NCBI GenBank assembly: GCA_964569045.1
Contig: CAZMSR010000002.1
Location: 43,272 to 107,271, forward strand
DNA: 64,000 bases
Source: an uncultured Gammaproteobacteria bacterium
GTDB lineage: Bacteria > Patescibacteriota > Patescibacteriia > Patescibacteriales > BS150m-G62
Reading direction: 5' to 3'
Made by a program: the position numbers and the translations under genes. The notes under the pieces were generated by a model. That model was not told the DNA's origin. It ran no database searches and saw nothing but the letters and a program-made list of their open reading frames with translations. Shown one piece after another: positions 17,666 to 64,000 of the stretch (position 1 is the stretch's first letter; the number at the start of each line of letters is the position of its first letter).

Positions 17666-18027
17666 AATTAATAAATTTTTTTATATTCAATTTAATTTTT
17701 TAGTTTACCATTCTATTTGTAGCATAACACTTTTTCATCTCTACATACATAATATCAAAAAAATTAAGGTAAAAAAAGAGCCCTGCAAGAGTATGGATTT
17801 ATCCACACCCAAGGCAATTGCAAGAACCTACTTTAAATGAAATTTAATGATTTAAATGTTCAAATGCAGGTCATTCTTTTTAAAAAGTTTTACAGGGATT
17901 AATTTTTTGTCTTGTCCATATCCGGAAGGACGACAATCGATTCTAACATTTTTCAATCACAAATTAGGCGACAGCCATCCGTAAACGACTGTTCACTAGC
18001 CTAATCTACTTATATTATACATTAAAG

Positions 18028-18066
18028 TAAAAAAAAGAGGGGTTATCCATACCTGTGGATAACCCC
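18028..18066 (-). terminator. Rho-independent terminator of the high-GC gene
   Basis: Perfect 11-bp stem ggggttatcca / tggataacccc (18039-18049 / 18056-18066), 6-nt loop, followed on the minus strand by tcttttttttac. A second GC hairpin ccgccc-tgcg-gggcgg lies at 18078-18093. Confidence 0.75.
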
Positions 18067-18148
18067 GGTTGTAGCGACCGCCCTGCGGGGCGGAAGTCAA
18101 GACTCAAGAGCCAATATTCAAAAGGCTCAAGGGTTCAATGTTCAATGG

Positions 18149-18985
18149 TCAATTACTGCGGACCAAGAACACCGAGGCCGACCCATAGCGCGAGTAGAAG
18201 TAGTCGACCCGGTTAGCGCCAAAGCCCAGGCGACCGTCGTCGAAGTCGAAGAGAGGCGCGAACGAGAAATCGCCACCGACGTCAGGTGCGTACTTATCCC
18301 CTGGGCAGTCGATGAACAAGTTCTCATGGGCCACGAGACGCTCGGGATGAGTTGCGAGCATGGAAACGATAACAAATGCTCCTAGACCGTATTCTTCGAC
18401 GGGAAACTCATCGCACACCTTGCGCACGCTCTTTCCGCGATGGAGGAAGCCGAATTGCGCCCAGATAACCCAGTAATCACCCGTCTGGGTTTTCCCGAGT
18501 TCATCGTAGAGCTCACGGGTCCTCTGACTCTCCCGCAAATACTTTGGTCCGAGGTTGTCTCCCCGATAGTTGTGGAAGTTGCGCTGGCCCGCGATAATGG
18601 CGAATATGGCCTTGAGAGCCGTGCCGTACTCGTCGGCCATGCGTTTCCACTTCGGGATGATGAAAAGAGCCTCTGCTCCCTTGGGGCGTTCTTTCGCTAA
18701 CTCCTCGGCCAATTCAAGCACGCCGTCGGTGGAGAGCCTGGGAAGCGTCTCACTCCAAAAGGCGAGCTGGTCGGCAGGGGATTTGGGCTCGTAACCCTTG
18801 GGGTAGCCGTAGTTGGACTCGGTTACCTCGTTGGCGTAACGACCGCGTGGTTTCTGCTCCTCCTCTTTTTCGTGTTTCAAAAAACTGGTCAAACGCTCCC
18901 TTGTGATGTGCCCCTCCTTGACTTGGCGCCAAAACTCTTGCATTTGACCAGGGGTTACATCACTTCCGTGCAGTGTGTCAATCAT
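18149..18985 (-). CDS. Hypothetical protein encoded on a ~58% G+C island (no family recognised)
   Basis: 278-aa ORF with a strong SD (taggaggatgttaccATG), its own promoter and its own terminator. The other ORFs overlapping it are stop-poor artefacts of high GC. Confidence 0.7.
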   Translation of the reverse strand: MIDTLHGSDVTPGQMQEFWRQVKEGHITRERLTSFLKHEKEEEQKPRGRYANEVTESNYGYPKGYEPKSPADQLAFWSETLPRLSTDGVLELAEELAKERPKGAEALFIIPKWKRMADEYGTALKAIFAIIAGQRNFHNYRGDNLGPKYLRESQRTRELYDELGKTQTGDYWVIWAQFGFLHRGKSVRKVCDEFPVEEYGLGAFVIVSMLATHPERLVAHENLFIDCPGDKYAPDVGGDFSFAPLFDFDDGRLGFGANRVDYFYSRYGSASVFLVRSN

Positions 18986-19057
18986 GGTAACATCCTCCTA
19001 TAGATGTTGGATAACCCGCGTTATGCGAGTCTTGGTTGGACATAAAAACCTATCAAC

Positions 19058-20850: not shown

Positions 20851-21240
20851 TTAAGTCTTTATTATCTCTTTTTCTAATACTGCAATTCTAGAATTATGGC
20901 TTACCAGTTCTGTATCAATTCTTTCATGAGAACCTACATGCGCAATTTGTTCATCACGTCTAACACTTAATTCAGTGCTTAGTGGTTCCAAAATATCCAT
21001 AACCTCTCTTTTGTATCCTTCAATTCTCTCTTCCATTCTATCAAACCGATCTTCATGATCTAGAAGTTTAATTATTATTTTTTCTTGAGTTTGCTTTATT
21101 GGTTCTAATTTTTGTTCTAATTTTTGTTCTAACTTTTGTTCTAATTTTTGTTCTAACTTTTGTTCTAATTTTTGTTCTAATTTTTGTTCTAATTTTTTAT
21201 CAAGCAATTCAGAAATTTGTTGTAAATCTTCTTTTTTCAT
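20851..21240 (-). CDS. Coiled-coil protein with (LEQK)n tandem repeat
   Basis: 129 aa. The N-terminal third is KLEQKLEQKLEQ..., encoded by a 12-bp tandem repeat. Confidence 0.5.
   Translation of the reverse strand: MKKEDLQQISELLDKKLEQKLEQKLEQKLEQKLEQKLEQKLEQKLEPIKQTQEKIIIKLLDHEDRFDRMEERIEGYKREVMDILEPLSTELSVRRDEQIAHVGSHERIDTELVSHNSRIAVLEKEIIKT
21103..21198. repeat. 12-bp tandem repeat, 8 units (ttctaatttttg / ttctaacttttg)
   Basis: Read directly. The units sit in frame inside CDS 20851..21240 (4 aa per unit). Confidence 0.95.
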
Positions 21241-21253
21241 TTTTTATATTTAT

Positions 21254-21413
21254 GGGACTGTCGCCAAACTCGCTTCACCCATAAATTGTTAATTTTGGCT
21301 AAATTTTTTTTAAATTTTTTTGGCTTACCTTAGGGTAGGCCTCAAAAATTATTCAAAAAATTTATCTTAAAATTTCCAAATTTATGAATTAAAACGAGTT
21401 TGGCGACAGTCCC
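21254..21413. repeat. 160-bp long-palindrome element, class E2, copy a
   Basis: 19-bp perfect terminal inverted repeat gggactgtcgccaaactcg / cgagtttggcgacagtccc. The arms are complementary over most of their length, with centre ggcttaccttagggtaggcc. Nearly identical copy at 46260-46419. Confidence 0.9.
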
Positions 21414-21548
21414 TTTATTATTAATTAATTTTATCATAATCATAACAAAATAAGCAAACGCAACAAAAGTAAATATTCACCAATCAAAAAAACAAAAAAT
21501 ACCCTGCTTGTTTGGGCATTTTTTGTATATTGCTTTTTATTTTACTGT

Positions 21549-21833
21549 TTACTCATCTCCTTTTAAGGCATCTCGCAAAGTTTTGCCGGTTTTAAATTTA
21601 GCCACCCTTACCTCTGGGATGGTAATTCTTTCACTTGGATTTTGTGGATTAACGCCACCTCTAGCATGCCTTACGCGAGACAAAAAAGTACCAAAACCAC
21701 TTATTTTAACTTCATTACCTTGCTTTAATTCATCAATAGTTATCTCTATCATTGACTCTATGACATCAATTACTTGTTTTTTACTTAATCCCGTATCTAA
21801 AGAAATTTTTTCGATTAATGTATTTTTGTTCAT
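21549..21833 (-). CDS. hup: DNA-binding protein HU
   Basis: 94 aa. ...GFGTF..R..ARGGVNPQNPSERITIPEVRVAKFKTGK... is the canonical HU arm. Confidence 0.92.
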   Translation of the reverse strand: MNKNTLIEKISLDTGLSKKQVIDVIESMIEITIDELKQGNEVKISGFGTFLSRVRHARGGVNPQNPSERITIPEVRVAKFKTGKTLRDALKGDE

Positions 21834-21904
21834 ATTATACTAAGATAAAATTTAAAAAAATTATTTTCAAAATTAATTTAGGAGTTGAGTATATTTTAAA
21901 TTAT

Positions 21905-23419
21905 TTACCTGGCAAATTCAATAATTCTCATTTCTCTTATTACATTAACTTTAATTTCTCCAGGATATTGCAATTCTTCTTCTATTCTTTGCGCTATTTT
22001 TTTAGCTAATTCACGAGCTTTAAAGTCATCGATTTCTTCCGGGGTTACAAATACCCTTACTTCTCTTCCGGCTTGAATAGCATATGTTTTTTCTACTCCC
22101 TCAAAAGTCCCGGCAACCTTTTCTAAATCACCTAGTCTATTTAAATATTTTTCAAAACTATCGTTTCTGGCACCAGGCCTACCTCCCGATATTGCATCAG
22201 CTACTTTTACTATAACTGAAAATATGTCTTTTGGCTTGTCATCGTGATGAGTTTCTATTGGAGCTATTACTTCTTCTGGGAGATTATATTTACGTGCTAT
22301 TTTCCCGCCAATCTCCGGATGAGTACCGGTTATTTCTTGATCTACTGTTTTACCTATGTCATGAAGCAATCCACCCTTTTTTGCAAGTGTTGTATCAACA
22401 CCTAACTCATCAGCTAAAAATCCGGAAATTCTACCAACCTGAATTGAGTGCAAGAGACCATTTTGACCATAACTTGTTCTGTATTTAAGCCTACCGATTA
22501 TTTGAACTAACTTTGGGTCTAAGCCGGTTATTCCTAATTCATACAAAGCTGTTTCACCGGCTTTTTTCATATCTAAAGCCAATTCTTTCTTAGCAGTATC
22601 TATTGCCTCTTCTATTTTTGCTGGCTGAATTCGACCATCTAGTATTAAATTCTCTAAAGCTTTTTTAGCAATATGCCGACGAATCAAAGAAAAACCAGAT
22701 ATGGTTATAACATTTGGAGTATCATCTACTAATATTTCTACTCCTGTTAATTTTTCAATAGTACGTATATTTCTACCTTCCTTACCAATTATTCTGCCTT
22801 TCATTTCATCATTTGGCAAATCCACTGACGTGCTAGTAAACTCAGAAGTCACAGACTGAGTCACCCTCTGGCAAGTATTCATTATTAAATGTCTTGCTTT
22901 GTCTTCTAATATTTCTTGTGACTCTTGTTCAAATTTAGTCAAGCGACTCATTAAAGCCTCTGAATTCTCTTCTTTAACTTTTTCTAGTATTATTTCGCTG
23001 GCTTTATCTTTTGACAATTTGCTGATTTCTTCTAGTCTTACTAGCTGATCTTGCTTGATTTGATTTATTTTGTCTTTTGCTTTTTCTACTTTTTCTATTT
23101 TTTCGTATATTATTTGTTGTTTTTCTTGCAATTCTAATAATTTTTGAGAAAAAAGACTTTCTCGTTTTTCTAACCTAGTTTGTAAAGCATTTATTTCGTT
23201 TCTACGTTTTTCTTCATCTTTTTTTGCTCCATCAATAATTTTTAACGATCCTTCTTTGGCTTTAAGTAAAATTTCTGCTTTTTCTTTCTTAGCCTCGCTT
23301 AATACTTTTTCTGCTTTTTCTTTAAGCCTAATTGTTCCGGTTTTAGCCTGGTTCTTCTGCCACCATATTCCAGCACTACCGCCAACAGCCAAACTAATAA
23401 TTCCCACTAAATATTCCAT
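21905..23419 (-). CDS. rny: Ribonuclease Y
   Basis: N-terminal TM helix, long coiled coil, KH domain (GRIIGKEGRNIR), HD domain (LLHDIGK). The ATG at 23419 (MEYLVGII) is more likely than the track start at 23440. Confidence 0.92.
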   Translation of the reverse strand: MEYLVGIISLAVGGSAGIWWQKNQAKTGTIRLKEKAEKVLSEAKKEKAEILLKAKEGSLKIIDGAKKDEEKRRNEINALQTRLEKRESLFSQKLLELQEKQQIIYEKIEKVEKAKDKINQIKQDQLVRLEEISKLSKDKASEIILEKVKEENSEALMSRLTKFEQESQEILEDKARHLIMNTCQRVTQSVTSEFTSTSVDLPNDEMKGRIIGKEGRNIRTIEKLTGVEILVDDTPNVITISGFSLIRRHIAKKALENLILDGRIQPAKIEEAIDTAKKELALDMKKAGETALYELGITGLDPKLVQIIGRLKYRTSYGQNGLLHSIQVGRISGFLADELGVDTTLAKKGGLLHDIGKTVDQEITGTHPEIGGKIARKYNLPEEVIAPIETHHDDKPKDIFSVIVKVADAISGGRPGARNDSFEKYLNRLGDLEKVAGTFEGVEKTYAIQAGREVRVFVTPEEIDDFKARELAKKIAQRIEEELQYPGEIKVNVIREMRIIEFAR

Positions 23420-23575
23420 AAATATAGCATCGCAAAACAAAAAGCTATACTTCTTTAAATCTGTATTTAATTGTAATATATTTTCAATTAATCACTAATC
23501 TTAACATTTAAAAAAAATTAAATTTTTTAATTCCAAGTCTTCTTTTTTTGCTCTAATTTTATACAAATCTTTATT

Positions 23576-23733
23576 ATACCATTCCCAATTAACACTTCGG
23601 AATAAAAACATTTCTTAATTTTAAGCGAAAAACAAGCCGGAGCGTGAAGCATAATGAATTATGTTGAACGCGAAGCGAATTTTTGTAGCCGAAATTGAAG
23701 AATATTTTCCAAATGTTTAATTGGGAATGGTAT
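23576..23733. repeat. 158-bp long imperfect palindrome (class E3)
   Basis: 17-bp perfect terminal inverted repeat ataccattcccaattaa (23576-23592) / ttaattgggaatggtat (23717-23733). The inner arms are partly complementary. Confidence 0.8.
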
Positions 23734-34215: not shown

Positions 34216-34554
34216 GACCTTCGCATTATGGGACTGTCGTTACCAATTAATGGCACGGCTCTTTTTTTTAGATTTTCAAGCATATACATATATATAATTG
34301 ACTATGCCTTTTGTATTGGTTAAAATTAAATAATCATACTATTCAGGTGTTAATGTGATAAATAAAATTTTATATTGTCAAGCCCTCTGCCTTATTTTTT
34401 TGATGTTTTGGATTATAAAACTTTAAAAAATAAAGAATTAAAAGAAGAGATAAATAAAGAAGGAAAAGTATTTTATAAGAAATAATAGTTTAATACATTA
34501 AAAATTATTTAGGATTTGATCTTTTAATTCAAGACTTTATAAAATTTTGCATAA

Positions 34555-36155: not shown

Positions 36156-36542
36156 TTAAGAAGCTACGCTAGTTACTATGCTGTTGGTTATAAAGGTTGT
36201 TATTGCCCAAGAGCTTAATACTATTAGTAATCCGATAATGGCTCGGCGTATGGTTGCTAGGGCTGTTTTTATTTTTTCTTCGTCACCTTGGGCTGTTAGG
36301 TAATTGTAACCGGCATATATCATTAAAATTACAAAAATAATTCCTAAAAACCCTAAAAATATTTTTATTACACCGGCGATTATTAAGCGTGGGTCTTGCT
36401 CGTTAAAGCCTGCATTGCCTCCTACGCTTTTTAATCTTTCTAATGCTTTTGAGTCGGCAAATACAAAATAAGGTACTATTAAAAATCCAACTAAAGTAAA
36501 TGTGCTAAAAAATAATTTTATTTTTTTTTTGAAATTTTTCAT
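36156..36542 (-). CDS. VirB2/TrbC-like mini-pilin paralog 7 of 7
   Basis: Signal-like N-terminus, then conserved module IKIFLGFLGIIFVILMIYAGYNYLTAQGDEEKIKTALATIRRAIIGLLIVLSSWAI. ATGA overlap with the upstream paralog. Confidence 0.7.
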   Translation of the reverse strand: MKNFKKKIKLFFSTFTLVGFLIVPYFVFADSKALERLKSVGGNAGFNEQDPRLIIAGVIKIFLGFLGIIFVILMIYAGYNYLTAQGDEEKIKTALATIRRAIIGLLIVLSSWAITTFITNSIVTSVAS

Positions 36543-36922
36543 ACAAATTGCTCTATAATAAACACACTAATAGCATACGCACTCATTACGATTAATAGTC
36601 CGATTATTGCTTTTTGAATTGTGCCGACAGCATTTTTTATTTCTTCTTCATTACCCCGTGCCATCATATACTTATAACCGCCATATATTATTAAAATTAC
36701 AAAAATAATTCCAAAAAAACCGAGCACTACCTTAATAACCTGCGAAATTATACTTTCCGGCTCGGTAACACCGGTATCATACCCGGCACCGCCTGTTCCG
36801 GCAACAGTTTCTAAAGTGTTACCAAAAGCATCTTTAAGACCGGCGGCAAATATTGGAACAGCAGCAAAAGACAAGCTAAAAACAACAGCAAAACCAATAT
36901 ATATTAAAAATCTTTTTAGCAT
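36539..36922 (-). CDS. VirB2/TrbC-like mini-pilin paralog 6 of 7
   Basis: Signal peptide ...SFAAVPIFAAG. Module IKVVLGFFGIIFVILIIYGGYKYMMARGNEEEIKNAVGTIQKAIIGLLIVMSAYAI. Confidence 0.7.
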   Translation of the reverse strand: MLKRFLIYIGFAVVFSLSFAAVPIFAAGLKDAFGNTLETVAGTGGAGYDTGVTEPESIISQVIKVVLGFFGIIFVILIIYGGYKYMMARGNEEEIKNAVGTIQKAIIGLLIVMSAYAISVFIIEQFV

Positions 36923-36976
36923 TTTATTTGTATAATTTATTGCGAAATAAGGTCCATATTTATATCAAGCTCCTCC

Positions 36977-37429
36977 TCAGTCAACGCCCCCCCCCGAAGG
37001 GTCAATGCCGGTTGGAGTATCAGCAAAACCGCCAATATTACTTATAACAAAAAGACTAATAGCATAAGCTAAAACTACAACAATAAGCCCAATAATTGCA
37101 TTGCGGATTATTGTTATTGCTTTTTCTACTTCTTGTTCATTACCCCGCGCCATCATATATATATACCCACCGTAGATCATTAAACCAAAAAACACAATCC
37201 CTAAAAAACCCAAAACTATTTGTATAATTATTGTTATGATTGTAAAAGGTGAGCCTGCCTTCAAAGTCGGTACAGCTCCGTATGCGGCCTCTCCGGCATC
37301 AACAAGCCCGCTTTCTTCTTCAAAACTTGCTCTAGAAACATCAGCAACAATAAAAAACCCAATAAAAAATATAAAAATCAAAAAAAACTTTAAATAACAC
37401 TTATACATATTTCTACAACCTAAAAACAA
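36977..37429 (-). CDS. VirB2/TrbC-like mini-pilin paralog 5 of 7 (with extra C-terminal tail)
   Basis: Module IQIVLGFLGIVFFGLMIYGGYIYMMARGNEQEVEKAITIIRNAIIGLIVVVLAYAI plus the tail GGFADTPTGIDPSGGGVD. Alternative start at 37408 (MYKCYL). Confidence 0.7.
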   Translation of the reverse strand: MFLGCRNMYKCYLKFFLIFIFFIGFFIVADVSRASFEEESGLVDAGEAAYGAVPTLKAGSPFTIITIIIQIVLGFLGIVFFGLMIYGGYIYMMARGNEQEVEKAITIIRNAIIGLIVVVLAYAISLFVISNIGGFADTPTGIDPSGGGVD

Positions 37430-37433
37430 TGCA

Positions 37434-37832
37434 TTATATTTCTCCTGTTAATGCTCCACCAACAAACGCTGTTATAGCGTAAGCACTCATAACTATTACA
37501 ATCCCAATAATTGCTGCAATTATTAAATCTTTAGCCTTAGTTATTTGCTGTTCATTCCCTCGAGCAGTCATCCAAAGCAAACCTCCATAAATCATTAAAA
37601 TCAAAAACAACACTCCAACAAAACTTAAAACAACCCCAATAACACTACCCAAAATAGTTAACACAGGAGTCTCCGGCAATTTAACAATATCTTGAGTATT
37701 ACTTAATCCACTCCTTACAGCTTCGGCACCGGAAGGCGAATCTACGGCCAAAGCTAATTGTGGGGTAAATACAAAAAAAAGCGCCATTGCAAAAATCGGC
37801 AAACTACTTAACTTATTAATTACACAAAACAT
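37434..37832 (-). CDS. VirB2/TrbC-like mini-pilin paralog 4 of 7
   Basis: Signal ...TPQLALAV. Module IGVVLSFVGVLFLILMIYGGLLWMTARGNEQQITKAKDLIIAAIIGIVIVMSAYAI. Confidence 0.7.
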   Translation of the reverse strand: MFCVINKLSSLPIFAMALFFVFTPQLALAVDSPSGAEAVRSGLSNTQDIVKLPETPVLTILGSVIGVVLSFVGVLFLILMIYGGLLWMTARGNEQQITKAKDLIIAAIIGIVIVMSAYAITAFVGGALTGEI

Positions 37833-37868
37833 TTAAACATTTACAAATTCTAGTCTTATACGCATCTA

Positions 37869-38102
37869 TTTAAAACTTTTTACAAAAAAGTTCTTAATAT
37901 TTCAAAAACATAAGGTATTTTTTAAAATTTTATAGCGAGCAAAGCTCTTCGGCCATAAAATTTGTAAAAAATGATCTGCTTTTGGTTTAAAACTTTTTAC
38001 AAAAAAGTTCTTAATATTTCAAAAACATAAGGTATTTTTTAAAATTTTATAGCGAGCAAAGCTCTTCGGCCATAAAATTTGTAAAAAATATTTTTCTTTT
38101 GC
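37869..38102. repeat. Tandem 117-bp repeat, 2 copies (37869-37985, 37986-~38102)
   Basis: The copies are identical for roughly the first 100 bp. Each holds the palindrome AACTTTTT-ACA-AAAAAGTT and the hairpin attttat-agcgagcaaagctcttcgg-ccataaaat. The block is flanked by the inverted repeat tctagtcttatacgcat (37848-37864) / atacgcataagactaga (38116-38132). Confidence 0.9.
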
Positions 38103-38160
38103 TTTAAAATCATAAATACGCATAAGACTAGAGCAATCTAGGGATTAATCACGAGTAACC

Positions 38161-38203
38161 TTTAAAACTTTTTACAAAAAAGTTCTTAATATTTCAAAAA
38201 CAT
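38161..38203. repeat. Partial (43-bp) third copy of the 117-bp repeat
   Basis: tttaaaactttttacaaaaaagttcttaatatttcaaaaacat is identical to the first 43 bp of the unit. Confidence 0.9.
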
Positions 38204-38246
38204 ACTACTCACTCACTCGCAATCAATTTAAGATTGCCCGTAATCT

Positions 38247-38765
38247 TTATGTTGTTGCTGCTAGTGTTGAAATAACATACTGCGCAATTCCAAAAGCAGA
38301 CATTATGATCACTAAGCCGATAACTCCGGCTATAATTAGGTTCCTAGCTTCTTCTACTTTATCCTCGTTGCCCTGCGCCGTCATCCACTTAAACCCGCCA
38401 AGCAATATGATAATAACCGCGATTATGCCAAGAAAACCAAGAATCACGTTAATAACGCCGGTGATGATAGTCATAGGTCCTTCTGTACCGAGATTTAATT
38501 GTCCCGCACCTCCACCACCACCACCTGAAACACCACCCCAGAAGCCGCCTGTGGGGGTTACACCGTTAGAATCTCCATTAGATTGATCAACTTCGCAGGT
38601 GCCTGCATCAGCATCATCATCAGTTGCTGCAGTAACTACGCAAATCTCATCAGTATTACAGTCATTATTTACCACACTACACACCGCCTTCACCTCCAAA
38701 GGAACTAAGACTAGTGCGAAAATAAAGGAAAAGCAGAAAAATATATTTAGTATTTTTTTTGTCAT
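38247..38765 (-). CDS. VirB2/TrbC-like mini-pilin paralog 3 of 7 (Cys-, Asp- and Gly-rich ectodomain)
   Basis: SD aggaggtg. Signal ...LVPLEVKAV. Variable region with 5 Cys and GGGGGG. The C-terminal 54 aa are identical to paralog 2. Confidence 0.75.
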   Translation of the reverse strand: MTKKILNIFFCFSFIFALVLVPLEVKAVCSVVNNDCNTDEICVVTAATDDDADAGTCEVDQSNGDSNGVTPTGGFWGGVSGGGGGGAGQLNLGTEGPMTIITGVINVILGFLGIIAVIIILLGGFKWMTAQGNEDKVEEARNLIIAGVIGLVIIMSAFGIAQYVISTLAATT

Positions 38766-38933
38766 AATTCACCTCCTTTCATAATTTTAAGTAATTATGG
38801 GTATTTATTTTTAAATTTGGTTAAAAATAAAGCCCAAAATATTTATTTTTTTATAATTAATAATATTTTAACCTAAATTAGTTACCAGTCTTAATAATAA
38901 AGCAATTCTAAACGCAATGGTAAACTATTATCC

Positions 38934-39356
38934 TTATAATCCTGTTGTTGTTTTCATTTGACCAATCACAAACTGCGCGATTCCAAAGGCGGACATTATG
39001 ATCACTAAACCGATAACTCCGGCTATAATTAGGTTCCTGGCTTCTTCTACTTTATCCTCGTTACCCTGCGCCGTCATCCACTTAAACCCGCCAAGCAATA
39101 TGATAATAACCGCGATTATGCCAAGAAAACCAAGCACAACGTTTATAACGCCAACAATAACCTCTATTGGTGTTTTTGTGCCAAGGCCGACAGCAACTGC
39201 AACGTTCGCTGAAGTTCCTTCCCCTCCCGTCTTCCAAAAAGCAGCATCAGCATCAGTATCAGTATTAGCATTTACCGGCGCAGCAAAAAGAACAAAGACA
39301 AAGACGGCTGCGAGGGCTGTTATTTGTTTTAGGTATTTAGTTATTTTTTGTTTCAT
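38934..39356 (-). CDS. VirB2/TrbC-like mini-pilin paralog 2 of 7
   Basis: SD aagggggtg. Signal ...LFAAPVNAN. Module LGFLGIIAVIIILLGGFKWMTAQGNEDKVEEARNLIIAGVIGLVIIMSAFGIAQ. Confidence 0.75.
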   Translation of the reverse strand: MKQKITKYLKQITALAAVFVFVLFAAPVNANTDTDADAAFWKTGGEGTSANVAVAVGLGTKTPIEVIVGVINVVLGFLGIIAVIIILLGGFKWMTAQGNEDKVEEARNLIIAGVIGLVIIMSAFGIAQFVIGQMKTTTGL

Positions 39357-39407
39357 ATAACACCCCCTTTCGTTTGTTTTTTAATCATTAGCTTGTGTTT
39401 AAAACTT

Positions 39408-39548
39408 TTTATAAAAAAGTTCTTAATATTTCAAAAACATAAGGTATTTTTTAAAATTTTATAGCGAGCAAAGCTCTACGGCCATAAAATTTGTAAAAAA
39501 TGATCTGCTTTTGGTTTAAAACTTTTTATAAAAAAGTTAACTAACTAG
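39408..39548. repeat. 117-bp repeat, 1.2 copies (fourth locus)
   Basis: Differs from the 37869 copy at 2 positions that I can see (tacaaaa->tataaaa, cttcgg->ctacgg). A 24-bp restart at 39525 runs into the stop of paralog 1. Confidence 0.9.
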
Positions 39549-39942
39549 TAATTCCAATCAATTCGCTAGTAACAAAAGTCGCTATTGCAAAGGCGGAAAG
39601 TATTATGGCTAAACCTATTACAGCTTGAGTTAAAAGTGTTTTAGCTTCGGTTACTTGATCCTCGTTACCCTGCGCTGTCATCCATTTAAAACCGGCAAGG
39701 AGAATTAAAATAACAGCAATTATACCAAGAAACCCAAGGATTATCTTAATTACGTTAGCAATAATAACTCTGGGGTCTTTTTTCTCGTCTAAGCCGGTAG
39801 CGCCTGCTAAATTAGCTCTAGTAGCACCACTAACATTATCACCCCAAACATCAACACCGGCACTTACCGGGGTTGCTATAAAAATAAAGGCAAAGGCAAA
39901 TGAGAATAAGCTTAGGAATGTTTTAATTAATTTTTGCTTCAT
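39541..39942 (-). CDS. VirB2/TrbC-like mini-pilin paralog 1 of 7
   Basis: Signal ...IATPVSAGV. Module IKIILGFLGIIAVILILLAGFKWMTAQGNEDQVTEAKTLLTQAVIGLAIILSAFAI. Confidence 0.72.
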   Translation of the reverse strand: MKQKLIKTFLSLFSFAFAFIFIATPVSAGVDVWGDNVSGATRANLAGATGLDEKKDPRVIIANVIKIILGFLGIIAVILILLAGFKWMTAQGNEDQVTEAKTLLTQAVIGLAIILSAFAIATFVTSELIGITS

Positions 39943-40055: not shown

Positions 40056-40111
40056 GGGACTGTCGCCAAACTCGCTTTAATTCATAAATTTGGAAATTTT
40101 AAGATAAATTT
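40056..40111. repeat. Half copy of the E2 palindromic element (one arm, inverted relative to 21254 copy's right arm)
   Basis: gggactgtcgccaaactcgctttaattcataaatttggaaattttaagataaattt matches the reverse complement of 21358-21413 with one mismatch, then diverges. Confidence 0.85.
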
Positions 40112-40182
40112 CTTTGACAAAATTTAATAATAGGCTAAGATAGAATTATAGGGAATAATGTAATAAATTTTAAAAATACTAT

Positions 40183-45821: not shown

Positions 45822-46259
45822 ATGTTATCAGACTACAGCAAAATATAGCATGCGTCAATTAAATTTATTGCATCTACTTTTTGTATTGTACAATTAATAA
45901 CGAAGCTGTCGCCAAATTTGCTTTAATTCTAAATTAAAAAATTTTAGCTAATTCTTGCCACACAGCACACAATCAAAAACATTTTTCAAAAATAGAGTAA
46001 AATAAATTAGCTTTTTACAAGAGATTGAAGTGTAGTATAATACTAGCAAATAATTTTTATTTTGTCAATAAAAATGCTATGTAATGACTACAATTTTGAT
46101 GAAATCATTTAGCTTACCTCTAAATTTTGATTTTGCTCAGCATTAGTATTTCTTTAAAATAAGTCTTCGGTAACAATAGCTTCAAGTAGTGTTGTACCAT
46201 ATCCTACTGACTTCCATCTAGCAGCATGATGCACATCTCATGACATATTCCACCATATT

Positions 46260-46419
46260 GGGACTGTCGCCAAACTCGCCTCACCCATAAATTGTTAATT
46301 TTGGCTAAATTTTTTTCAAATTTTTTTGGCTTACCTTAGGGTAGGCCTCAAAAATTATTCAAAAAATTTATCTTAAAATTTCCAAATTTATGAATTAAAG
46401 TGAGTTTGGCGACAGTCCC
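46260..46419. repeat. 160-bp long-palindrome element, class E2, copy b
   Basis: Same length and termini as 21254-21413. I see only a handful of substitutions (e.g. cgcttc->cgcctc, aaaacgag->aaagtgag). Confidence 0.9.
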
Positions 46420-46446
46420 ATTACCAATAGAAACTTAATGTTTAGC

Positions 46447-61471: not shown

Positions 61472-64000
61472 ATGGTAAGAAGAAATCCATTTGATAAAAG
61501 ACAACCAAAAAGAAAAAAAATAAAAAGAATAACAAAATCTATTCCTCGCACCAAAAGAAGTAAATATCGGCCAATTACAAGCCTAAGACGAATAAAAAAA
61601 ATCAAAACAATAAATGATGCGCCTCAAATAGAAACCACTTCTGAAGTAACGGTAAGTGAATCAATTCCAGAAAAAGAAGTGCTATATAATGATGTCTACA
61701 AAGAGTCCGTATTTTTACTTGAATCATTTGCCGACATTCAAAAACAAGTAGAAAGAAAAAATGAATCGGCAATAGAACGAATTAATAATATAGGTGCTAG
61801 CGGAAGCGAAAATAAAAAAGTTACAAAAATATGCGACTTAACAAATAAAGAAATAATTGAATTAATTCGAGAAAAAGAAAAAAAAGTAAATGAATTATTG
61901 TCTTTAGTAGAGATACAGGAAGCCAGCAAAACAAACAACAATGGCTCAGAAGTCATCATGCATACCTCTTCTGAAGATACGCAACCACAAACTCCGCTAC
62001 AAATCACAGATCAAAGAGAAGAACGTCTTTTAATTGAAGACAAAAGCACAAAAGAGCATCCTGCAACGCCTCCTAAAATAATTCATGCACCAAATATACC
62101 TGAAGTAATCCATCAAGATCAAAAAAAAGCAACCGATCAAATAACATACTACCAAAATTTAGAAAAAAAGTCAGGAAATAAAGAAAAAGAAGAAAATAAT
62201 AAACTTGTCAAAGAAAGAGATGCTCAGATAGAAAAAGCTGTAGCAGACAAGAATATGGATGTTAATGTTATAGAGAAAGGAACTCATTATCCGGCGACGA
62301 AAGAAGTAGAAATACAAGAATCATCCACAGAAGAGCAAGAAGAGGGAGCGGAAAATAATAAAGCAGAAAACATGGAGACACAAGAACCATTCATAGAAGA
62401 GAAAGAAGAGGAAAAGAATAAAGAATCGTACAAGAATAAAATTACTAGACTTAAAAAAGAACTAGAAGAAGCTAAAAAAAATAATGAAACTGATAGAGCT
62501 AATAGAATAGTTGGAATAATAAGAATAGCTAAAGAGGAAAAAAAACAAAAAAAACTTAAAGAAAAAGAAAATGCTAAAATAGCGCCTGAAAAGCCACTTC
62601 TTAGTCGAGAATATGCAAAAGGAGATATTGTTGATTTTCCAAGTAATGAGAATACTATTAGAGAAGGAGGAGAAATAATAAGAATAGACACTAATAGTAA
62701 TACCGGAGAACAAATGGCAACAATTATTTGGGTAAAAGATAGCAAAGCTAAACACAGTGATGTTAGTTTAAAAAAATTAGATGCTGTTCAGAAAAAAAGT
62801 ATTAAAGAAAATCTACTTAGGCAGTACAAAGACGAATTAAAACTAACAAAACAACATAAAGACACTAAAAAAGTACACGAAATTGCAAAAAAAATACATG
62901 ACCTAAAAGAAGATAAAGTATTGCCATTAGATACAGCAAGAGATAACTTTTTTAAAGAATATAAAAAATACATGGGGGGCAGGATTGAAAAAGAAATGAT
63001 TAGGGAAATTATGCAAATTCATAAATCAGAAGAAAAGTGGCCACCTCACCTTAAAAAAGCAAAAGAAGAATACACAAAAGCACGACACGGACAATTTAAT
63101 ACTCTAAAAGAAGGTAAAAGCATTCCACAAGATCAGCTTTTTGAGGAACTATACGAAGAAGAAGATAAAAACATGAAAAGAATGCGACAGGAATTTTTAA
63201 GTGAAAATCAGAATAATTTGGTAAGCAAATCTTTAAATTTAATAAAAAATAACAAAACCGGAATAAAAACTGCCGGTTGGGTTGTTGCTGGTTTAGCCGG
63301 TCCTGCAGGACTTTTAAGAAAAGCTTTAATAACAGGAATTGGTGCTTTTACAACTCTTGAATTAACTAAATCAAAAGAAAAATACATAAAAAAACTAAAA
63401 GAAAAAAAACTAATTGAACATGAAGAATTTAACGAATTAACATTACCTGAAATAGAAAAAAGATACAAAGAGCGCGAAAAACAAATCAAAAACACAAGAA
63501 AACTTTTTTTAGCAGCTCAAGGTGCTGCAGCATTAGTTACTTTTTATGGAATATCAAGCTTAGATATGCTTGATAAATTTGACTCATCACTTAAAGATGA
63601 TGTTCAAATTACCACTAAACCAAAATTAAATTCATCAACCAACTTAAAAACACCCGAAGTCTCCACAGAAGCACCGGCAGAGCAACCGACATCTCACCAA
63701 AAAATATCATCACAGTCTAGCGGAGAAGTGACTATAACCGATACTAATAAAAACAGCCTTGTTTTAAAATCTTTAGAACAACATTCAAACGATCTTAAAG
63801 GTTACTATATCGGACCAAATGGCGAAAGATTATTTCAAGAGCTAGAGAATGGAAATTTTATAGAAATTGATACAAGTACAATCCAAAATAATACACTAAA
63901 AACCTCTATTGAAACAGGAATTAAAGCTCGCTTTCCATCATCAGAAGACTCAACAATACTTAAGGATCAAGCATCAATACCAGTACCTACTCCAAAGCCA
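61472..64000 (+). CDS. Large K/E-rich hypothetical protein with two central hydrophobic segments (3' end outside window)
   Basis: Not in the supplied ORF track. I checked every sequence line from the ATG at 61472 and the frame stays open for 843 codons to the window edge. Begins MVRRNPFDKRQPKRKKIKR.... Hydrophobic stretches TAGWVVAGLAGPAGLL...ITGIGAFTTL (~63270-63360) and LFLAAQGAAALVTFYGISSL (~63505-63560). Confidence 0.7.
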   Translation, partial: MVRRNPFDKRQPKRKKIKRITKSIPRTKRSKYRPITSLRRIKKIKTINDAPQIETTSEVTVSESIPEKEVLYNDVYKESVFLLESFADIQKQVERKNESAIERINNIGASGSENKKVTKICDLTNKEIIELIREKEKKVNELLSLVEIQEASKTNNNGSEVIMHTSSEDTQPQTPLQITDQREERLLIEDKSTKEHPATPPKIIHAPNIPEVIHQDQKKATDQITYYQNLEKKSGNKEKEENNKLVKERDAQIEKAVADKNMDVNVIEKGTHYPATKEVEIQESSTEEQEEGAENNKAENMETQEPFIEEKEEEKNKESYKNKITRLKKELEEAKKNNETDRANRIVGIIRIAKEEKKQKKLKEKENAKIAPEKPLLSREYAKGDIVDFPSNENTIREGGEIIRIDTNSNTGEQMATIIWVKDSKAKHSDVSLKKLDAVQKKSIKENLLRQYKDELKLTKQHKDTKKVHEIAKKIHDLKEDKVLPLDTARDNFFKEYKKYMGGRIEKEMIREIMQIHKSEEKWPPHLKKAKEEYTKARHGQFNTLKEGKSIPQDQLFEELYEEEDKNMKRMRQEFLSENQNNLVSKSLNLIKNNKTGIKTAGWVVAGLAGPAGLLRKALITGIGAFTTLELTKSKEKYIKKLKEKKLIEHEEFNELTLPEIEKRYKEREKQIKNTRKLFLAAQGAAALVTFYGISSLDMLDKFDSSLKDDVQITTKPKLNSSTNLKTPEVSTEAPAEQPTSHQKISSQSSGEVTITDTNKNSLVLKSLEQHSNDLKGYYIGPNGERLFQELENGNFIEIDTSTIQNNTLKTSIETGIKARFPSSEDSTILKDQASIPVPTPKP

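Follow-up and report, generated by a model that had tools for sequence, protein, structure and literature searches.

What kind of element is E2, the 160-bp sequence at positions 21254-21413 (+ strand), between an HU gene (21549-21833, -) and an ORF of 129 aa (20851-21240, -), and what put it there? The window, meaning the whole 64,000-nt stretch of DNA that was analysed, has about 30% G+C, and its proteins are closest to those of Patescibacteria, several of the named matches being to Falkowbacteria. It was suggested in the original prediction that E2 resembles MITE or REP/ERIC-type elements, and that the near identity of two copies reflects either recent mobility or strong constraint, for example on a structured RNA or a protein-binding site. 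We find that E2 is very probably a MITE, a 160-bp non-coding derivative in which both ends are of the right-end TIR type of a 1.26-kb IS5-like insertion sequence (IS) of Patescibacteria. It combines the features by which prokaryotic MITEs are recognized: it is small and non-coding, bears TIRs, is flanked by a 5-bp duplication, shares its termini with a transposase-encoding element and is present in dispersed copies.

The two full copies were correctly located. The second occupies 46260-46419 (+), is likewise 160 nt long, and is 97.5% identical to copy 1, the four differences all being transitions. The survey was extended past both ends of the window by means of contigs that encode proteins identical to those of the window, which brought the surveyed length to about 85 kb. 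These contigs come from several JGI/ENA samples, are 99.99-100% identical to the window and all contain copy 1, which is itself identical in six independent metagenome contigs of the same organism. A third full copy (L104:4925-5084) was found 1.1 kb past the window end at position 64000, and it is 98.75% identical to copy 2. Thus, E2 is represented in about 85 kb of the source genome by three full copies, whose identity is 97.5-98.75%, as well as by a single arm and a decayed arm. The full copies have mutually unrelated flanks, and segmental duplication is therefore not the origin of the copies. Two assemblies, L068 and L105, end inside E2, and the repeats explain the assembly breaks at these points.

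The partial copies required more correction. The half copy, thought to be about 56 bp long, measures 70 nt (40056-40125, -) and consists of a right arm only, inverted with respect to the full copies; it matches E2 at 63 of 70 positions without gaps and at 94% in a gapped BLAST alignment. Its spacer separates a T4SS-pilin gene from the small conserved gene that follows RNase J. The decayed arm (GAAGCTGTCGCCAAATTTGCTTTAATTC...) is present as described, although it extends over 45902-45946 (-) and not just over about 45906-45935. It is of the right-arm type, inverted, 83% identical over 42 nt, and separates the infC promoter from the start codon of that gene. The sequence described as a 13-bp terminal remnant (34227-34239, +) does exist, but its match to the E2 terminus is limited to 10 bases (34230-34239, GGGACTGTCG). 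TAT stands before them, which is also the case at copy 1 and the half copy; a possible remnant of this size is too short to be established and is inseparable from chance. All copies are intergenic, and no complete ORF of at least 20 aa lies inside E2, in line with the earlier description of the copies as non-coding. An origin of the infC start from E2 was also considered, as the 5' end of infC (ATGAGAAGAGTTTGGCGAAGAGC, encoding MRRVWRR) and the E2 terminus have 11 nt in common. This likeness is coincidental, since MRR[VIT]WR is conserved in the IF3 of nearly every Patescibacteria relative inspected; in 64 kb, moreover, chance alone is expected to produce an 11-mer shared with some stretch of E2.

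The left TIR of copy 1, GGGACTGTCGCCAAACTCG (21254-21272, +), begins with 15 nt that are identical to the TIR of a 1258-bp IS, and its right TIR (21395-21413, -) belongs to a terminal stretch of 22 nt (AAACGAGTTTGGCGACAGTCCC) that equals the right end of the same IS. With up to three mismatches allowed, the window contains five occurrences of the 19-mer GGGACTGTCGCCAAACTCG, whereas shuffles predict none. Perfect inverted termini of 19 bp had been attributed to both full copies, which is true of copy 1; in copy 2 one mismatch at the right end leaves 18 nt. The arms of about 80 nt are some 78% complementary across the full length and, as anticipated, either strand is predicted to fold into one long hairpin (RNA, -68.9 kcal/mol and z -11.8 for the + strand, -74.7 kcal/mol and z -13.8 for the - strand; DNA, -43.1 for the + strand). 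This hairpin would be a by-product of the symmetric build of E2, with no function for the host.

The partner of E2 was recognized from these ends. A scan of metagenomes with GGGACTGTCGCCAAACYC gave 40 loci, which were then searched for a second, inverted terminus. Elements of MITE size were delimited at L037 (92 nt), L054 (98 nt), L050 (99 nt), L051 (160 nt), L046 (162 nt) and L033 (499 nt), and elements of about 1.25 kb at L047 and L059, each of the latter with a single ORF of 331-333 aa. The 333-aa ORF of L047 matches Pfam DUF772 (E 5e-20) and DDE_Tnp_1 (E 7e-14), both above their cut-offs. Among NCBIfam models it matches IS5_4 best over the full length, at 139.5 bits for a cut-off of 140, and the IS1182 model gives 151 against a cut-off of 270. 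The exact L047 protein is encoded within the 1258-bp IS, which occurs in Patescibacteria metagenome contigs and has the E2 terminus GGGACTGTCGCCAAA(C) as its TIR. The left end of this IS is GGGACTGTCGCCAAATACCC, and its right end is identical to that of E2 copy 1 at 22 of 22 bases. Further copies of the 1258-bp IS (L091-L100) have identical 15-nt TIRs and the same 22-nt agreement at the right end, and it is this right-end type that is found at both ends of E2. A sister IS of 1259 bp (L070-L079) has the TIR GGCACTGTCGCCAAA, and a third IS, of 1248 bp (L081), has the terminus GGGCCTGTCGCC / GGGCCTGTCGCCGAAAG.

The transposase belongs to a large group, with more than 2,300 homologues at E<=1e-20, many of them on contigs of 1.2-1.4 kb as is typical for repeats. 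In their sources, homologues are named IS5-family transposases of Magasanikbacteria, Parcubacteria or "Patescibacteria group" bacteria. Among the named IS of a plasmid collection, the nearest is of the IS5-like ISAba23 family (28% identity to the partner transposase), and an unnamed transposase on a Candidatus Bandiella plasmid is 43% identical. As had been noted, the window itself encodes no transposase of this kind: tblastn with the partner transposase was negative there, and none was found in the approximately 85 kb surveyed of the source genome, the partner IS being known from other Patescibacteria contigs. The gene that supplies the transposase would lie in another part of the genome or have been lost. 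On contig L050 (1233-2377), the 99-nt MITE, with its ATTAA duplication, lies beside a truncated partner IS that retains transposase residues 6-191 and a TIR ending at 2377; at least one genome thus contains both MITE and IS.

A scan of one genome per species gave five terminus matches, one of which is a true relative, a 98-nt element on a Kaiserbacteria contig (L004) with the same 16-nt termini as E2 and flanked by ACGAA. The other four are single, unpaired matches in GC-rich DNA and were set aside as chance, as were 17 matches to the 16-mer in viral contigs, also single, unpaired and on GC-rich contigs. We also considered E2 as the product of an internal deletion of the IS. Past the first 22 nt or so, the resemblance of the MITE arms to subterminal sequence of the IS does not exceed the level of shuffles, and E2 therefore did not arise by simple deletion from the IS copies examined. 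Two other origins were rejected on the nature of the partner. The end of IS26, GGCACTGTTGCAAA, resembles the E2 TIR, but an IS6/IS26 origin is ruled out by the DUF772 and DDE_Tnp_1 (IS5-like) proteins encoded by elements with E2 termini. A Tn3/TIME origin, brought up by the 5-bp duplication, is ruled out by the IS5-like 333-aa protein.

No clear target-site duplication had been seen at either full copy. This holds for copy 2, where the flanks read ATATT and ATTAC, but copy 1 is bordered on both sides by TTTAT (21249-21253 and 21414-21418). Copy 3 is flanked by a perfect 5-bp duplication as well (TGTTA), so that two of the three full copies in the source genome carry one. Outside the source genome and its window, perfect 5-bp duplications were found at 12 of the 15 insertions checked. 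They flank six IS insertions, with TTAAT (L070), CTTAA (L071), ATGAA (L076) and TTCAA (L081), and, for the L047 type, GGCCT (L091) and TTTAT (L098). They were scored where one contig supplied both flanks of a single insertion; the remaining IS contigs combine flanks of different insertions, as would be expected for a repeat assembled from a population. Five of six related MITE-sized elements of 92-162 nt have the duplication (L004 ACGAA, L046 TATTT, L050 ATTAA, L051 CTGAG, L054 ATCTT), the missing case being the 92-nt element L037, and in the flanks of L033 four of the five positions agree. The probability that two 5-mers at a fixed position match perfectly is about 0.001-0.002, and these frequencies are thus not due to chance. 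The absent duplication of copy 2 could reflect recombination between copies or small deletions in the AT-rich flank. The 8-nt sequence TTACCAAT follows both the 34230 remnant (34240-34247) and the right end of copy 2 (46421-46428), and no similarity extends past these 8 nt. It may be shared by chance, or it may be the trace of a recombination that could explain why copy 2 has no duplication.

Taken together, the termini and duplications suggest that this IS5-like transposase family moves E2. The DDE transposase (333 aa, DUF772 plus DDE_Tnp_1) would be supplied in trans and would bind the 16-22 bp termini, recognizing the GGGACTGTCGCCAAAC ends. It would then cut E2 out or copy it, and insertion at a 5-bp staggered cut followed by repair would leave the 5-bp direct repeat. 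The divergence of 1.25-2.5% among the copies points to recent activity. Of the two explanations put forward for the near identity of the copies, mobility is therefore the one retained. Constraint finds no such backing: there is no Rfam match and there are no orthologous copies, and only the termini are clearly conserved.

All genes that flank E2 copies are on the - strand, and the orders are HU, E2 and the 129-aa ORF at copy 1; an RCC1-repeat gene, E2 and infC at copy 2; and RNase J, the one-arm copy and the T4SS pilin gene at the half copy. Copy 3 is flanked by rpsP and a DUF5663 gene. In the spacer that holds copy 2, the intrinsic terminator of the RCC1 gene (46486-46457, -) is on one side of the element and the infC promoter (46068-46040, -; TTGACA-17-TAGTAT, common to a close relative) on the other. 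The spacer thus need not be transcribed, and a neutral insertion there would be tolerated.

A comparison of orthologous intergenic regions, which had been proposed as a check, found E2 missing from the HU, infC and RNase J-pilin sites of relatives. In relatives whose RNase Y is 80-85% identical, the order is RNase Y-HU-ComM, with about 100 nt from HU to ComM and neither E2 nor the 129-aa ORF between them. Relatives whose IF3 is 78-80% identical have the order infC-rpmI-rplT-secG-SBP-RNase J and then the small gene, which is followed by pilin genes only in the closer relative. Upstream of infC and in the RNase J spacer they lack any E2-like sequence, and their infC leader is shorter and without the decayed arm. 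Judged against relatives at 78-85% protein identity, the element is therefore lineage-specific at three loci. No precise empty site was recovered in these relatives, the spacers being too diverged to reveal one and the HU site also being without the 129-aa ORF.

Several other features of this neighborhood deserve mention. The 129-aa ORF (20851-21240, -) contains about ten tandem 12-nt repeats (21075-21218) that encode (KLEQ)n; it has no significant family match and is missing entirely from relatives, where ComM directly follows HU. At 18050-19000 lies an island of 55-59% G+C within the 30% G+C genome, with an orphan ORF of 278 aa (18149-18985, -) for which no Pfam, NCBIfam or PHROG match was found, the region having no Rfam match either. 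Relatives have ComM next to the SBP gene, and the approximately 1.5 kb found here are therefore a lineage-specific insertion, GC-rich and probably horizontally acquired. On its edge there is a degenerate E2-like terminus (GGCTGTCGCCTAATTTG, 17962-17978, -) that resembles the decayed arm at 45902 and for which no partner end was found. A third family of repeats, about 160 nt long and with 17-nt inverted termini (ATACCATTCCCAATTAA...TTAATTGGGAATGGTAT), is represented at 23573-23733, in the divergent spacer between RNase Y and a DHH gene. Its second copy, 90% identical and inverted, is at L104:5537-5697, 1.6 kb past the window end and beside E2 copy 3. Finally, a run of eight small - strand ORFs of 127-172 aa spans 36156-39942. 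One of the eight was scanned and is a T4SS pilin (39541-39942, PF18895). The ORFs have diverged segments of 185-189 nt in common, and perfect 44-nt repeats lie in their spacers, which suggests an array of paralogues that is possibly variable.

Could the hairpin, and not transposition, account for E2? In one explanation, E2 is a structured RNA gene or a cis-regulatory RNA hairpin kept by selection, its inverted termini being the base of a functional stem. The very stable predicted fold of both strands agrees with this, as does one of the four differences between the copies, which turns a G-C pair into a G-U pair on the + strand. The three full copies also have the same orientation relative to flanking genes, a coincidence that is not significant at n=3. 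Yet Rfam holds no family match for E2. With Rfam 15, the whole window gave no match at gathering score, and it contains no tRNA. A permissive scan of E2 gave only matches to plant miRNA hairpin models that fall far short of the threshold, the best having 41.6 bits against a gathering score of 195; such matches arise because E2 is a long hairpin, and indicate nothing more. An RNA gene would not be expected to be flanked by 5-bp duplications or to share its ends with transposase-bearing elements. The truncated one-arm copies, the absence of E2 from the orthologous spacers of relatives and the position of copy 2, with a terminator on one side and a promoter on the other, also count against it. 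In family members of 98-99 nt only the termini pair, and the termini are all that is clearly conserved between family members, which argues against a conserved RNA gene. We regard this explanation as very improbable. A REP/REPIN- or ERIC-type element spread by a tyrosine (RAYT or IS200-IS605-like) enzyme would, like E2, be intergenic, palindromic and multi-copy, and a chance local duplication might leave repeats as well. However, the E2 termini match those of a DDE (IS5-like) and not of a Y1 transposase element, 160 bp far exceed a REP unit, and E2 has 5-bp duplications, while to our knowledge REP and IS200/IS605-type elements make none; the unrelated flanks of the three copies speak against local duplication. 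Both ideas are scarcely credible, and in the pair of element types originally named it is the MITE that survives, by its IS termini and 5-bp duplications, whereas the DDE partner and those same duplications leave the REP/ERIC type without support.

A MITE that the host has since co-opted is a milder alternative, in which the 80-bp hairpin, transcribed within flanking operons, serves as an RNA stabilizer, a processing site or a barrier to transcription. E2 does lie just upstream of genes, 13 nt from the start codon of the 129-aa ORF at copy 1 and 75 nt from rpsP at copy 3. Its placement relative to genes nevertheless varies among copies, no terminator-like site was found inside copies 1 and 2, and the sole promoter-like match, a weak 9/12 in copy 2 (46319-46291, -), has no counterpart in copy 1. 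Co-option would also be consistent with what is seen in four elements of 160-162 nt, namely E2, L046 (162 nt), L051 (160 nt) and a sequence at 2495-2656 of the window. Each keeps an arm complementarity of 79-81% despite mutual identities of 55-72%, and in one case the termini differ too. In an RNAalifold alignment, 27 of 64 aligned pairs were changed on both sides, a count that comes from five AT-rich sequences with an uncertain alignment and that the inverted symmetry of each element also yields. All in all, co-option is unlikely. The same elements raise the broader proposal that the long-hairpin form of 160-162 nt is itself under selection across Patescibacteria contexts, which we consider rather unlikely. 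If true, it could mean that the hairpin is needed for mobilization, for example as a folded single-strand intermediate, or alternatively that the host uses it as an RNA element in reduced genomes.

The sequence at 2495-2656 is a second MITE-like element in its own right. It is 162 nt long, has perfect 24-nt termini (TATACTCAATTGCTAAACTAATTC) and a predicted DNA fold of -42.9 kcal/mol (z -9.5), and is accompanied by a partial copy at 21847-21906. In the interior it shares about 70% identity with L051, a metagenome element with E2-type termini, and its own terminus aligns with that of E2 except for a 2-nt indel. These likenesses in sequence suggest a sister family moved by a related transposase.

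Understood as a MITE, E2 has well-known counterparts. Prokaryotic MITEs that derive from DDE insertion sequences include RUP of Streptococcus pneumoniae, linked to IS630-Spn1, and the Correia/NEMIS elements of Neisseria. Like E2, these are intergenic, non-coding, multi-copy elements of about 100-160 bp, with TIRs, a target-site duplication, a transposase supplied in trans and, often, a hairpin fold. E2 differs in its termini, in its IS5-like partner of 333 aa, in a duplication of 5 bp instead of TA and in having two ends of the IS right-end type, and there is no sequence relationship. The partner IS resembles the IS5 family in its single ORF with DUF772 and DDE_Tnp_1, its length of about 1.26 kb and its short TIRs starting with GG, whereas E2 carries no transposase. 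The partner departs from that family in its low identity (28%) to ISAba23-type transposases, in a score of 139.5 bits where 140 is required, and in its 5-bp duplication, that of the classical IS5 group being 4 bp.

Elements of other classes share some of these traits. REP/REPIN and ERIC (IRU) sequences are also dispersed, intergenic, imperfect palindromes whose transcripts could form hairpins. REP units, of 20-40 nt, are linked to RAYT tyrosine transposases and are not known to be flanked by duplications; ERIC is a sequence-defined enterobacterial family of 127 bp. E2, by contrast, has 160 bp, DDE-type TIRs and 5-bp duplications. Tn3-family elements make 5-bp duplications, and the TIMEs derived from them are, like E2, non-autonomous, with a 5-bp duplication and termini starting with GGG. 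Unlike them, E2 has TIRs of about 16-22 bp, not of about 38 bp, and a partner that is IS5-like and 333 aa long, not a Tn3 transposase of about 1000 aa.

In the searchable literature we found nothing on MITEs, IS5 elements or this IS in Patescibacteria/CPR. E2 is mobile DNA of an ordinary type, from a group that has been little studied, and represents no new kind of biology. Its insertion polymorphism could provide markers for strain typing, and knowledge of the repeat is also useful for annotation and assembly. Importantly, E2 and its partner IS constitute a concrete mobile-element family for bacteria of the candidate phyla radiation, and the low divergence among the copies suggests that transposition has taken place recently in a small, reduced genome.
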